From Escherichia coli (GTDB taxonomy: Bacteria > Pseudomonadota > Gammaproteobacteria > Enterobacterales > Enterobacteriaceae), in the NCBI RefSeq assembly GCF_030013595.1, contig NZ_CP122768.1: a stretch of DNA of 64,000 bases; one strand, 5' to 3'. Each line of letters starts with the position of its first letter. The stretch's first letter is position 1. A model generated the notes under the pieces. The model was not told the origin of the DNA. It worked only from the letters and a program-made list of their open reading frames with translations, and searched no databases. This document shows, one piece after another, positions 9,158 to 35,876 of the stretch. The position numbers were made by a program, and so were the translations under genes.

Positions 9158-9245
9158 GGAAGTGTGGCCGAGCGGTTGAAGGCACCGGTCTTGAAAACCG
9201 GCGACCCGAAAGGGTTCCAGAGTTCGAATCTCTGCGCTTCCGCCA
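9158..9245 (+). tRNA. serT: tRNA-Ser (anticodon UGA)
   Basis: 88-nt sequence GGAAGTGTGGCCGAGCGGTTGAAGGCACCGGTCTTGAAAACCGG...GAATCTCTGCGCTTCCGCCA with long variable arm and anticodon loop CTTGAAA; encoded CCA end. Confidence 0.92.
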
Positions 9246-33008: not shown

Positions 33009-33446
33009 TTACTTAATAACAGTAACCACAGCCACAAGCACGGCCATCGCAGACAGGACAATACCTGTGAGTAACCAAGTCTGATTTGCAAATGATTTCT
33101 GAAGTTCAGTACGATGCTCAGCCATCTCAACTTTCAGAGACTGGCGTAAATCAGCCATCTCAGACTTCAGGGATTGGCGCGATTCTGCCATCTCAAGCCT
33201 CAACCCTTCGCGAATCTCCAGTACATCAGATTTGGTAGCAAAGGATTCGCTTCTTGTGGTGAGAGTAATCAGGTTGTTTTTGATTTCAGTCACATCACTT
33301 TCCAGGCAACTGACCCGCCGTTCAAGGTCGTCATTCATGCCATCACCTCCATCATTACCACTTCCTGTTACTTGGTTGTTGGATACATTATAGGCATTCT
33401 CTTTCTTTTTTCTGAACCGCGAAATATGTGCAACATTCTCTGCCAT
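33009..33446 (-). CDS. hypothetical coiled-coil protein with C-terminal transmembrane anchor
   Basis: ORF ...LEIREGLRLEMAESRQSLKSEMADLRQSLKVEMAEHRTELQKSFANQTWLLTGIVLSAMAVLVAVVTVIK; ATG shares one base with the upstream stop (TGATG); family not recognised. Confidence 0.55.
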   Translation of the reverse strand: MAENVAHISRFRKKKENAYNVSNNQVTGSGNDGGDGMNDDLERRVSCLESDVTEIKNNLITLTTRSESFATKSDVLEIREGLRLEMAESRQSLKSEMADLRQSLKVEMAEHRTELQKSFANQTWLLTGIVLSAMAVLVAVVTVIK

Positions 33447-33808
33447 CACTTCTCATCACCCTGCTTGCCTACCCAGTTCATAAAGGCCCGGGCCGAGTAA
33501 CGATGAACAAACCCACATCTGTTACAGGTAAGTCGGAATTCATAGTTATGGATATTTTCCCGATCATGTCCCTCATATCCCGGATACCCAGTAAATGGAC
33601 CGATGTAATCAAGCATAACAAAAGTGCCTAAATCACACTCCTCAGCAGTTTTCGGCTCAGGCCCCACCTCAACAATATTCGTCAAATACATGTACATATC
33701 CGTATCGCCACACGACAAACATTTTTCATTCGTAGACGACTCATTGAGAAAACGCGCAAAATTATCGAGCGTTGCCATTCTTTTAAGTTCATCTAAATGA
33801 AACTTCAC
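33446..33808 (-). CDS. hypothetical Cys-rich protein (two CxxC pairs), translationally coupled to int
   Basis: 120-aa ORF with CLSCGD and CNRCGF; GTG start 2 nt after the int stop, preceded by AGGAGG inside the int 3' end. Confidence 0.55.
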   Translation of the reverse strand: MKFHLDELKRMATLDNFARFLNESSTNEKCLSCGDTDMYMYLTNIVEVGPEPKTAEECDLGTFVMLDYIGPFTGYPGYEGHDRENIHNYEFRLTCNRCGFVHRYSARAFMNWVGKQGDEK

Positions 33809-33810
33809 TC

Positions 33811-34788
33811 TTAAGCACCTCCTAGTGGATTAAACCTCACCGCATCCTGCAGGTAATCCGGCGCAAGATGGGCATAAATCATCGTTGTCTGAATCTTTGC
33901 GTGCCCCAGAATTTTCTGGAGCGTCAGAATATTGCCGCCGTTCATCATGAAATGACTGGCGAAGGTATGGCGCAGCGCATGAACAGCCTGGCCGTCAGGA
34001 ACATCAGGTGCGACCGTTTTGATGACATCGCGAACCAATGGATAATCCAGCGTCGGAAACACCAGTTTCCCGCCCCGTATTTTGATCTTTTCAAACAGGC
34101 TTTCAGAAATAGGAACGGTACGGTTTTTGCTGTTCTTCGTTTTTGAAAAAGTGATTCGACAATGAAGAACACGGCGCTGCTCTAGTGCCGCTACCTCGCC
34201 CCATCGCGCCCCGGTCGACAGAAGGATTTCGACAGCCAGCCGTTCATCGGGATTTTCAGCCAGTGCATCCAGCAACTGAACACATTCAGACTTACTCAGA
34301 TATCCCATTTCGCGCTCGTTAACCTTCATTCCTTTAAGGCCTTGAACGGGGTTATCGTTAAGAAAATGGCCGGATGAGATGAGTGCGGTAAACATCGCGC
34401 TTAACGCCCCAATCTCTCGATTTATGGTGCTGGGCTGTATCCCCTGCTCTATCCTGGACACACGTAGCTCGGTGAGCATCGTTGTATTAAGTTTATGCAC
34501 GCACGGGTCATCCATTGCCTCACTCAAGCGCAGCAATTTAAGGCGCGTGTTATGCCCTGACTTCATTAGCTGGCCGTGGTATTTCCACCACAAGTCAATA
34601 AGCACTGACAGCGGGCGGCGATCAATGGAGTTTCCTTTCCACTCATTGTTATGCTGTTGCGCCAGCACCCACCGCTCATATAAAACTGCATCCGATTTCG
34701 TTTTAAATTTTTTGCGAATGCGTTTGCCTTTACGCCCCTCAGGACGCATGTCAAGAAGATACCCTCCCGGAATTGATTTTATGCTCAT
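33811..34788 (-). CDS. int: tyrosine integrase, P2 Int family
   Basis: Starts MSIKSIPGGYLLDMRPEGRKGKRIRKKFKTKSDAV (compare P2 Int MAIKKLDDGRYEVDIRPTGRNGKRIRRKF); catalytic ...HALRHTFASH... and ...TTMIYAHL... motifs. Confidence 0.9.
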   Translation of the reverse strand: MSIKSIPGGYLLDMRPEGRKGKRIRKKFKTKSDAVLYERWVLAQQHNNEWKGNSIDRRPLSVLIDLWWKYHGQLMKSGHNTRLKLLRLSEAMDDPCVHKLNTTMLTELRVSRIEQGIQPSTINREIGALSAMFTALISSGHFLNDNPVQGLKGMKVNEREMGYLSKSECVQLLDALAENPDERLAVEILLSTGARWGEVAALEQRRVLHCRITFSKTKNSKNRTVPISESLFEKIKIRGGKLVFPTLDYPLVRDVIKTVAPDVPDGQAVHALRHTFASHFMMNGGNILTLQKILGHAKIQTTMIYAHLAPDYLQDAVRFNPLGGA

Positions 34789-34837
34789 TCGTGAAGCCCC
34801 AGCGTTACAAGACCACCATGCCCCCAGCGTTCCATGA

Positions 34838-35149
34838 TTAGCCGGGCTGTGTGCCAGTCTTGCGGGATTTTTGAGAAGACGATGTGTTTTCTGGCCCATC
34901 AGGGGAGAGAGAAGGACTGATCTGCCCAGCAGCCTCATTTGTTTCGTTACTCATCAACCACGTAGTGTATTTTTTAAATTCCGGGTGCATTGTGATTTTC
35001 AGTAAAACCTCCGTTCCCACACCTCGAATACCAGTCTCGTATTGCTTAACCGTACCAACCGCAATACCTATTGAATCCGCGAACTTTGCCTGACTAAGCC
35101 CCTCAGATTCTCGAATTGCTTTTAGCTTCTTTGATATCTCTATTGACAT
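34838..35149 (-). CDS. C: immunity repressor C (P2 C family HTH)
   Basis: 103-aa ORF MSIEISKKLKAIRESEGLSQAKFADSIGIAVGTVKQYETG...HPEFKKYTTWLMSNE...GQISPSL, resembles P2 C; directly upstream of int on the same strand. Confidence 0.75.
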   Translation of the reverse strand: MSIEISKKLKAIRESEGLSQAKFADSIGIAVGTVKQYETGIRGVGTEVLLKITMHPEFKKYTTWLMSNETNEAAGQISPSLSPDGPENTSSSQKSRKTGTQPG

Positions 35150-35244
35150 GGTGTGCACCTGAATACTATATTGGTTATCAGTTGAGTACCACTTGACACT
35201 ACAAAGAGCCACAAATAGCACCAGATTGAATAGGTTATCACACC
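35150..35244. promoter_or_regulatory. divergent C / cox switch region with direct repeats
   Basis: 95-bp interval between divergent C and cox starts; AT(T/A)GGTTATCA at 35170..35181 and 35230..35241 flank a TTGACA at 35193..35198. Confidence 0.5.
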
Positions 35245-35523
35245 ATGGCAAAAGTCCTTAACACATACGAACAAGCGGATTTTGAGCGTTTGGCGGCGTT
35301 CTACCCATACCGTAATGAACATGGGCTACCGGTACTTGAAGAAAGCCTGGAGGATTATGCGAAACGCACAAATCAAAGCATTCTCGCTGTAAGAAGGCAG
35401 GCTGATAGATCGGTAATTCCCGTTACTCAAGAAGGAAGAAACACAAAACGCAAAGTAAATCTCTTCGCAATTTTCCTGAAAACCATCAGAAACGCAGAGA
35501 AATACGTGCAAATGACAAAATAA
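35245..35523 (+). CDS. cox: Cox/Apl-like excisionase-regulator (putative)
   Basis: 92-aa ORF first in the rightward early operon; central ...YAKRTNQSILAVRRQADRSVIPV... resembles the P2 Cox HTH segment. Confidence 0.55.
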   Translation: MAKVLNTYEQADFERLAAFYPYRNEHGLPVLEESLEDYAKRTNQSILAVRRQADRSVIPVTQEGRNTKRKVNLFAIFLKTIRNAEKYVQMTK

Positions 35524-35537
35524 CGAGGTGTCATTTT

Positions 35538-35876
35538 ATGCTGAAGCAACGCCGTAATTTTTGTACCGGAACAGAACGCCACGCTAACCGTTTCACTACC
35601 AGTGCATCACGCAGCAACATCCGCTACAGCCTGAGTGATACACACGCAACGCCGGATGGCTACCCAGTAAAACAAATCGGCGAGCACGCCTGGCTGATTG
35701 AGAAAGCTGGAATCGTGATCCACAAATGCCCACGCAATCCGTTTACCGGAAACCGCATTTTTGCACTGAGCTGTGGCGACAATCAGTTCGGGCAGGATTT
35801 CACATTATACGAAGCACTTCGCACGGTTGATCGTCTGCTTCGCGGGCAAAGTTTTATTAAACAGGCTGATTTATAA
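35538..35876 (+). CDS. hypothetical early-region protein
   Basis: 112-aa ORF in the early operon after cox; no family recognised. Confidence 0.45.
   Translation: MLKQRRNFCTGTERHANRFTTSASRSNIRYSLSDTHATPDGYPVKQIGEHAWLIEKAGIVIHKCPRNPFTGNRIFALSCGDNQFGQDFTLYEALRTVDRLLRGQSFIKQADL

Follow-up and report, generated by a model that had tools for sequence, protein, structure and literature searches.

Which sequences does the immunity repressor of a P2-like prophage recognize between its own gene and the first gene of the early operon, and from which promoter does that operon start? The locus considered here lies in a 64-kb stretch of Escherichia coli DNA that carries such a prophage (64,000 nucleotides; hereafter, the window). 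A sequence-only reading of this DNA had described a divergent C/cox-type immunity switch, in which two 12-bp direct repeats 60 bp apart flank a -35 hexamer, TTGACA, in the 95-bp interval between the repressor and cox starts, and had put the repeats forward as candidate operators.

The genes bear out this description of the locus. The open reading frame (ORF) list places a gene for a 103-aa C-type immunity repressor on the minus strand at 34838..35149, and RefSeq annotates a repressor of the same size at near-identical E. coli loci. In profile searches, its product matched the Pfam HTH_3 family (1e-9) and phrog_147 (5e-34). Its identity is 40% with P2 C and 48% with WPhi C. At the specificity positions of P2 C, which are residues 31, 33, 35, 36, and 41 (PMC2995052), the window protein has V31, T33, K35, Q36, and I41. 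The C start codon appears as CAT, the complement of 35147-35149, and the ATG of the cox-like gene is at 35245, which confirms the 95-bp interval between them.

[quoted passage not shown] Profile searches with this protein gave no Pfam match, a strong match to phrog_11533, a family of unknown function (4e-53), and a weak match to the Cox-like phrog_575 (E=0.008). In pairwise comparisons, its similarity to P2 Cox was marginal (25% over 53 aa, E=2e-5), and no similarity to WPhi Cox was found. To the right of the cox-like gene are DUF4761 and DUF4754 genes and a replication endonuclease. A P2-type integrase, identified by Pfam Int_N and Phage_integrase and by the RefSeq annotation of near-identical loci, lies downstream of C in the lysogenic operon (33811..34788, minus strand). 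The locus thus has a helix-turn-helix C protein of about 100 aa, a divergent cox-like gene, and int beyond C, and it is a member of the known P2-type switch family; the segment 35143-35251 is the transcriptional lysis/lysogeny switch, of the divergent C/cox type, of a P2-like prophage.

This switch belongs to a common class. The exact C sequence is present on at least 1000 contigs from E. coli, Shigella, and E. albertii, where it bears generic names only. Within INPHARED, the window class matched no phage in the set, the best match being a Klebsiella record at 63% identity, and PhiECO5 of UTI89 (class IX) has a different C, of 113 aa. Judged against INPHARED and PhiECO5, the immunity class is uncharacterized, and it may already carry a number among classes I-X.

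We searched for the early promoter, Pe, by consensus and by position weight matrix (PWM). Within 34800-35600, a single promoter-like site was called. Its -35, TTGACA at 35143..35148 (plus strand), overlaps the C start codon and was the best PWM match in the region, and its -10, TATATT at 35167..35172 (plus strand), was found by both the consensus scan and the PWM. The two hexamers are separated by an 18-nt spacer and agree with the consensus at 11 of 12 positions. As in other P2-type switches, the -35 is at the C start: it overlaps or abuts this codon in the annotated records of P2 and WPhi, and, of 55 species-representative loci, 42 have TTGACA on or next to it, 33 of these with TAnnnT 16-19 nt downstream. 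Heteroimmune relatives carry a TAnnnT hexamer at the place equivalent to the Pe -10.

The TTGACA between the repeats (35193..35198, plus strand), previously taken for the -35 of the early promoter, did not survive this comparison. The only -10 available to it is TAGCAC, and together they score 8.1 bits in the PWM scan versus 14.5 bits for Pe; the promoter scan does not call this site. Moreover, 35198 is G in most relatives, which therefore read TTGACG, and the hexamer is absent from other classes, whereas Pe is found family-wide. The sequence at 35193..35198 belongs to a third CAnnTGA-like element and to a small leader hairpin. Given the consensus score of Pe, its homologous position in P2 and WPhi, and the lack of a usable -10 for the TTGACA at 35193, we place the Pe start near 35180, with +1 most likely at 35179-35180. 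With this start, the left repeat would reach from the end of the -10 to +1, with the right repeat at about +51 to +61. Because Pe occupies 35143-48 and 35167-72, the repeats do not flank its -35.

There is a precedent for the arrangement that the sequence-only reading had in mind. [quoted passage not shown] If the window worked in the same way, the repeats would be half-sites on either side of the TTGACA at 35193-98. The repeat itself is real, if only modestly non-random, and TTGAC at 35193-97 is conserved within the class. However, the half-sites of P2 Hy dis are 26 bp apart rather than 60, a 60-bp spacing has no counterpart in the family, the right copy is not class-specific, and the hexamer between the repeats lacks an acceptable -10 and is not a promoter. 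We consider this arrangement very improbable for the window.

The repeat held up at the spacing claimed but not at the length. The left copy, ATTGGTTATCA (35170-35180, plus strand), and the right copy, ATAGGTTATCA (35230-35240, plus strand), are identical at 10 of 11 positions and share the exact core GGTTATCA, with 60 bp from start to start. The 12th base is G in one copy and C in the other, so the repeat unit is 11 nt, not 12. Direct 11-mer pairs that agree at 10 or more positions are expected 0.036 times by chance in 95 bp, and the best direct repeat was equalled in 2.7% of region shuffles. By these two measures, the repeat is modestly non-random. The degenerate repeat motif has exact matches at these two places only in the 64-kb window, and the exact 8-mer GGTTATCA occurs there six times, more often than the 1.27 expected.

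Repressors of the P2 family do use direct repeats (PMC1904268), as the reading had said of P2 C. The mapped operators are 8-bp repeats 22 bp apart in P2 and 10-bp repeats 34 bp apart in WPhi, and in both phages the Pe spacer holds one of the repeats and the other follows the -10 (PMC1904268). Measured against these operators, the two 11-mers qualify as a pair of direct repeats, being 10/11 identical and close to the mapped 8-10 bp in length. Their placement is different. They do not flank the Pe -10 or -35, as the right copy sits on the cox Shine-Dalgarno sequence, and their 60-bp spacing is outside both the 22, 26, and 34 bp of the mapped cases and the clusters that we describe below for the family. 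Of the two copies, only the left is class-specific.

For an operator with the geometry of the mapped cases, we compared the 18-nt Pe spacer with its best ungapped match 20-36 nt downstream. Applied to P2 and WPhi, this test finds the mapped operators, with 12/18 and an offset of 22 in P2 and 13/18 and an offset of 34 in WPhi. Matches of at least 12/18 were obtained in 17 of 41 distinct switch regions versus 0.7% of shuffled controls, and across the 41 regions the offsets cluster at 20-24 and 30-34 bp. In the window, TGGTGTGCACCTGAATAC and TGGTTATCAGTTGAGTAC agree at 12 of 18 positions at offset 23 (P=3.8e-4 per offset, 0.005 over 13 offsets). We propose two operators that contain these sequences: O1, TGGTGTGCACCTGAATACTA (35149..35168), which fills the Pe spacer, and O2, TGGTTATCAGTTGAGTACCA (35172..35191), which covers the predicted Pe +1 and has a weak dyad.

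Several observations are consistent with this proposal. Like mapped operators, O1 and O2 flank the Pe -10, are separated by two to three helical turns, are class-specific, and are co-inherited with the C class, including in the mosaic L070 described below. A pattern derived from the internal symmetry of O2, when allowed up to two mismatches, matched only O2 and O1 in 64 kb, a result that is not independent of the 12/18 agreement; the same scan found no further O2-like long-range sites in the 64 kb. Together, O1 and O2 cover the Pe spacer, the -10, and the sequence up to about +12. In P2, the footprint consists of four protected patches, from O1 to about +16, that were read as four C monomers (PMC1904263), and the coverage by the predicted operators of the window resembles it. 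The similarity of O1 to O2 is only 12/18, and O1 is partly constrained by its place in the C ribosome-binding region and by shared ancestry (TTGACATGGTG is also present in P2). By anti-Shine-Dalgarno pairing, the minus strand of O1 also carries the C Shine-Dalgarno sequence, AGGTG, at 35160 to 35156.

The left repeat takes in the final 3 nt of the Pe -10 and extends over the left part of O2, and it is very probably the core of that operator (TATTGGTTATC). All relatives with 84-100% identical C carry it unchanged, and it shares TATTGGT with the mapped WPhi half-site TATTGGTGAC (PMC1904268). The suggestion that the repeats are operators is supported for the left copy, which probably lies in O2 and has TATTGGT as in WPhi, and is not supported for the right copy, which is not specific to the repressor class, varies among relatives, and is absent from L070.

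The WPhi C repressor and operator were reportedly the subject of a 1999 study by Liu & Haggard-Ljungquist. The recognition helix of WPhi (AJ245959 / AY135739), GIALGTVKNYESG, is near-identical to that of the window, GIAVGTVKQYETG. Both switches also have TATATT as the -10, with repeats that flank it. They differ in that WPhi has two perfect 10-mers 34 bp apart, whereas the window has a single TATTGGT and a degenerate second unit 23 bp upstream. The WPhi interval is 152 bp long, with an 82-nt transcript overlap, and the Cox proteins are unrelated. At the specificity positions, the residues are V/T/K/Q/I in the window C and L/T/K/N/H in the WPhi C, and classes with I or L, T or S, K, and K at 31, 33, 35, and 36 carry TGGTTCA-type repeats. 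This pairing of residues and repeats would fit, we infer, recognition of TGGT plus a variable tail.

The P2 switch (NC_001895) is laid out in the same way as that of the window. Both have the order int-C / cox, a Pe -35 TTGACA over the C start, and an identical TTGACATGGTG. In both, a first repeat occupies the Pe spacer and a second, in the window a proposed one, follows the -10 at a distance of two helical turns (22 bp for P2 and 23 bp for the window). Pc is weak and convergent in P2, and the window has weak candidates for such a promoter. The details of the sequences differ: the C proteins are only 40% identical, the repeats read GTTTAGAT in P2 and TGGT..CA..TGA.TAC in the window, the interval is 114 nt in P2 versus 95, and the cox-like protein is barely related to P2 Cox (25% over 53 aa). 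The P2 switch was mapped experimentally; that of the window is predicted from sequence.

We considered whether neither repeat is a repressor site. The left module would then be promoter and ribosome-binding sequence, and the repeat would be due to chance or a relic of an old duplication of the cox initiation region. In agreement with this, GGTTATCAGTTGAG (35173-86) matches a distant P2-like cox initiation region, GGTTATCAGATGAG, at 13 of 14 positions; the over-representation of the 8-mer across the window and the imperfect similarity of O1 and O2 point in the same direction. Yet the repressor must act on Pe, and the footprint-like conservation continues past the -10, to +12 or +18. The resemblance of the left copy to a mapped WPhi half-site, combined with near-identical recognition helices, and the fit of the O1/O2 geometry to the family-wide pattern also argue against it. 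We judge it improbable that neither copy is a repressor site.

Related loci provided a separate view of the two copies. We assembled loci from IMG/VR, metagenomes, E. coli genomes, and GTDB species representatives into a graded series. In relatives with C 84-87% identical and the same recognition helix, the left copy is perfect and the right copy reads ACAGGTTATCA or ACAGGTTAACA; positions 35231 and 35238 of the right copy vary among relatives that have the same helix 3. L029 preserves the left module at 54 of 55 positions versus 78% identity for the C gene, and, although its helix 3 is identical, its right copy is degraded to GGTTAACA. In L070, where the C protein is 66% and the C gene 67% identical, 35143-35191 is kept with two substitutions and one insertion. 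Past 35191, L070 switches to a Klebsiella-type cox module, from which the right copy is absent, with GCAGGATAACA in its place.

The complementary pattern was found in two other classes, represented by FDAARGOS_403 and L056, in which C is 68% and 63% identical, respectively. Each has its own strong direct repeats beside Pe, with AGACGACT occurring twice, 32 bp apart, in FDAARGOS_403 and TATAAGTACAC twice, 34 bp apart, in L056. Both share the right-hand interval of the window, including AGGTTATCACA before the cox ATG. Since the repressors are divergent and have their own repeats, yet the right part is shared, there is a module boundary at about 35191-35205, and the right copy is part of the Pc-cox module. 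Variation within the class follows this division: across class variants, two columns vary in 35143-35197 versus 10 in 35198-35244 (Fisher p=0.011). Two of the 11 positions of the right copy are variable, which is the background rate for the rest of the module (8/36), while none vary in the left copy. When we looked for more mosaics, the DNA-pattern scan of GTDB species representatives found none, the viral scan gave no new contigs, and the metagenome scan added three contigs, all of the L070 class.

What, then, is the right copy? It contains the Shine-Dalgarno sequence of the cox-like gene, AGGT at 35232-35235, and the best anti-Shine-Dalgarno pairing within 25 nt upstream of the cox-like ATG falls on AGGUUAUC. 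Of the 55 species-representative loci, 22 have the pattern GG(T/G/A)TAnCA 0-5 nt ahead of the cox ATG, with many different recognition helices among them, and Providencia and Klebsiella michiganensis read GGTTATCAGATG before the cox start. The right copy thus appears to be primarily the Shine-Dalgarno sequence and spacer of the cox-like gene, together with part of a probable Pc core, and older than the immunity class. Its sequence would be ancestral to many P2-like cox genes, and its likeness to O2 largely coincidental. For C, it would provide at most a weak auxiliary site, and we think even this unlikely.

The leftward promoter, Pc, is less distinct than Pe, and the PWM scan yielded only weak candidates. 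One is an extended -10, TGTGATAAC (35242 to 35234, minus strand), and the other a -35-like TTGCCA (35251 to 35246, minus strand) that overlaps the cox start and mirrors Pe. In this region, a TGTGATAACCT block is kept in three classes, and in WPhi the Pc -35 abuts the cox ATG. The shared Pc-cox module starts with the tandem sequences ACAAAGAGC / ACAAATAGC (35204..35222, plus strand), which are 10 bp apart and have a direct-repeat score of 6.5. The FDAARGOS_403 and L056 classes retain their CACAAAnA...CAGA pattern. If the analogy with the cox boxes of P2, which are also repeated, holds, the tandem may contain sites for the Cox-like protein.

The right copy could also be a third operator. As a distal site of this kind, O3, it would place C on the Pc core and on the region where cox translation is initiated; C bound at Pe and O3 would repress Pe and regulate its own promoter Pc, and the intervening 60 bp might be looped. 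When the test was restricted to the operator zone and the 28 nt that surround the cox start, a 10/11 match such as that between the right copy and the O2 core was reached in 0 of 200 shuffles. As the region-wide p is about 0.03, the match is unlikely to have arisen by chance, and to call it a coincidence may be wrong. The right copy also lies within the probable Pc core. P2 C down-regulates its own promoter at high concentration (PMC3448106; PMC1904263), and WPhi C binds a single half-site in vitro (PMC1904263). In addition, L174 (Escherichia sp.) has a 10/11 operator-like copy beside its cox start, and only the 95-100% class has the T at 35231, without which the match would be 9/11 instead of 10/11.

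Other data speak against a third site. The core GGTTATCA is older than the class, since classes whose repressors are divergent have it too, as do the initiation regions of distant cox genes. The right copy is as variable as the background of its module, is degraded in L029 despite the identical helix 3, is absent from L070, and has no partner arm. Across the family, 4 of 50 regions had p<=0.05 versus 2.5 expected, and hence there is no family-wide rule by which the operator recurs at the cox start. We regard O3 as a doubtful, minority reading of these data. A single assembly that spans both promoters, and in so doing shuts the lytic promoter, throttles repressor synthesis, and bridges the promoters, we likewise think rather unlikely. 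If it were true, the three-site layout would be undescribed for any P2-type switch, and L174 may share it.

As a whole, the explanation that we favor, with somewhat more than even confidence, is that Pe lies at the C start, that O1 and O2 form the operator, and that the right copy is mainly the cox ribosome-binding region. The sequence features, conservation, module boundaries, and family geometry described above allow us to infer how binding, transcription starts, repression, and the cox-like protein might fit together. Transcription from Pe would begin at about 35180 and run rightward into the cox-like gene. Pc, weak and leftward, at or just inside the start of the cox-like gene, would transcribe C and int, and its transcript would overlap that of Pe by about 50 nt. 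C dimers on O1 and O2, which are imperfect 18-20-bp direct repeats 23 bp apart, would exclude RNA polymerase from Pe, with O1 filling the Pe spacer and O2 covering the end of the -10 and +1.

Each site would probably hold one dimer, as proposed for P2. The controller protein C.Esp1396I and the helix-turn-helix repressors 434 cI and P22 c2, whose operators are palindromic, have been cited as structural relatives of P2 C (PMC2995052), and in these systems one dimer occupies each of two adjacent repeated sites, which is the arrangement predicted for the window. Repression of Pe would keep the operon of the cox-like gene silent, and superinfecting phages of the same class would be repressed as well. 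For the cox-like protein, we presume a role as repressor of Pc, exerted through the shared module at 35199-35230, which includes ACAAAGAGC and ACAAATAGC.

Additional elements in and near the interval were examined and set aside. A 16-nt inverted repeat, 35140-55 / 35239-54 (CATGGTGTG / CACACCATG, p=0.04), was considered as a functional symmetry or an RNA pairing. It is not conserved, as 35243 is C>T in the 95% relatives and L028 and L029 differ. Both transcript leaders fold no better than shuffled sequences (z=0.46, 0.59), giving no sign of a role at the RNA level, and no Rfam family was found in that part of the window which is prophage. By eye, only partial matches were seen for a DnaA box, for an IHF site (WATCAR-N4-TTR), and for a mini-ORF from the TTG at 35182.

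The assignment of promoter and operator positions concerns a common uncharacterized class in E. coli, Shigella, and E. albertii. The finding itself is of little weight; the assignment is of help in predicting immunity to superinfection and mosaic exchanges of switch modules. Of more general use is the geometry test, which predicts operators for dozens of classes.

Finally, we examined the symmetry of O2. In Klebsiella CP052639, a palindromic O2, TGGTTCATGCTAATGAACCA, occupies the position equivalent to the window O2, and L066 and L165 have the same form, TGGT-N12-ACCA. The window O2 does not qualify as a true palindrome of this type, with 7 of 10 pairs (p=0.38), and we kept it as a weak dyad. 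In this it differs from the operators of repressors that bind palindromes, as the dyad is not significant. Across the family, a significant 20-22-bp palindrome was present at the O2 position in 14 of 45 distinct switch regions, 11 of them at p<=0.01 versus 0.45 expected; the same test found no significant palindrome at this position in P2, WPhi, or the window. As palindromes occur in about one-third of the switches, direct repeats of palindromic dimer sites seem to be common in the family. Their frequency tempers the published generalization that C reads non-palindromic direct repeats (PMC2995052), and a palindromic O2 bears on the long-standing puzzle of how a symmetric P2 C dimer reads direct repeats that are not palindromic.

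We searched 41 switch regions (the window, the L001-L076 classes of related P2-like loci, and L165-L220) for a second copy of the 18-nt spacer of the early promoter Pe, located 20-36 nt downstream and matching at 12/18 positions or more. The spacer was repeated at this threshold in 41% of the regions, compared to 0.7% of shuffles, and the offsets fell into two clusters, 20-24 and 30-34 bp. This geometry test recovered the mapped operators of P2 and WPhi, and for many immunity classes that have not been studied it yields predicted operators.

We also examined the position of O2, the downstream member of the proposed C repressor operator pair (O1, 35149-35168; O2, 35172-35191 in the window). At this position, 31-35 nt past the Pe -35 element, 14 of 45 distinct P2-type switch regions contain a significant palindrome of 20-22 bp, such as ATGGAGCTAATTAGCTCCAT and GGTGTACTTATAAGTACACC; at p ≤ 0.01, 11 regions were observed versus 0.45 expected. 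The loci listed for these palindromes are L056, L075, L076, L167, L174, L185, L066, L165, L004 (Klebsiella CP052639), and L002 (FDAARGOS_403). In most cases, O1 is a direct copy of the O2 palindrome. In the same test, P2 and WPhi were not palindromic. The "non-palindromic direct repeat" rule therefore seems to describe a special case.

Within the window's O2, directly past the Pe -10 element, the segment at 35173-35186 (GGTTATCAGTTGAG) matches at 13/14 positions the cox translation-initiation region (GGTTATCAGATGAG) of two distant P2-like prophages, Providencia stuartii L190 and Klebsiella michiganensis L201. The single mismatch changes ATG to TTG. This likeness may be a relic, or it may have arisen by convergence or by chance. 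L174 (Escherichia sp. MOD1-EC7003) is, after the window's own, a second class with a repeat of operator-like sequence beside the cox start: its palindromic O2 contains CTGGAACCTAT, which agrees with CTGGATCCTAT at 10/11 positions, a level that none of 200 shuffles reached. Separately, the 8-mer GGTTATCA occurs six times in the window (18482, 29552, 35173, 35233, 39866, and 53070), where 1.27 copies are expected and none of 100 shuffles reached six; the next base is C after four of the six copies.

The starts of the two divergent genes are related by a 16-nt inverted repeat, 88% complementary, at 35140-35155 and 35239-35254. One arm, TTGACATGGTGTG, places the Pe -35 element over the C start; its mirror image, TTGCCATGGTGTG, covers the cox start on the minus strand, so that C and cox both start CACACCATG. 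The inverted repeat is not conserved in the 95% relatives, which have a C>T change at 35243.

A mosaic boundary at 35191-35205 separates a module containing C, Pe, and the operators from one containing Pc, the predicted leftward promoter, and cox. Repressors of three or more different classes are combined with this one Pc-cox module, and in the L070 class (L070, L221-L223) the window's left module is joined to a cox of Klebsiella type. On the cox side, ACAAAGAGC and ACAAATAGC lie in tandem, 10 bp apart, at 35204-35222. The CACAAA...CAGA pattern is kept in the other classes that have the same cox-like gene, and the protein encoded by that gene may bind the tandem elements.

The inferred Pe transcript is predicted to carry a small 5′-terminal hairpin, GUUGAGU-ACC-ACUUGAC, at 35181-35197. 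The TTGAC that the sequence-only reading took as part of the early-promoter -35 hexamer forms part of this hairpin. Folding of the whole Pe leader was no better than that of shuffles.

Elsewhere, comparison of the window with L232 and L001 shows that otherwise near-identical prophages carry different small ORFs in the stretch from int to the prophage end (33009-33808 in the window). The window has two there, of 146 and 120 aa, and strain 2015C-3121 has one of 131 aa beside btuC. These int-proximal ORFs look like variable cargo. To the left of the prophage are a tRNA gene (9158-9242) and a member of the IS009 sRNA family (RF02111; 9737-9935).
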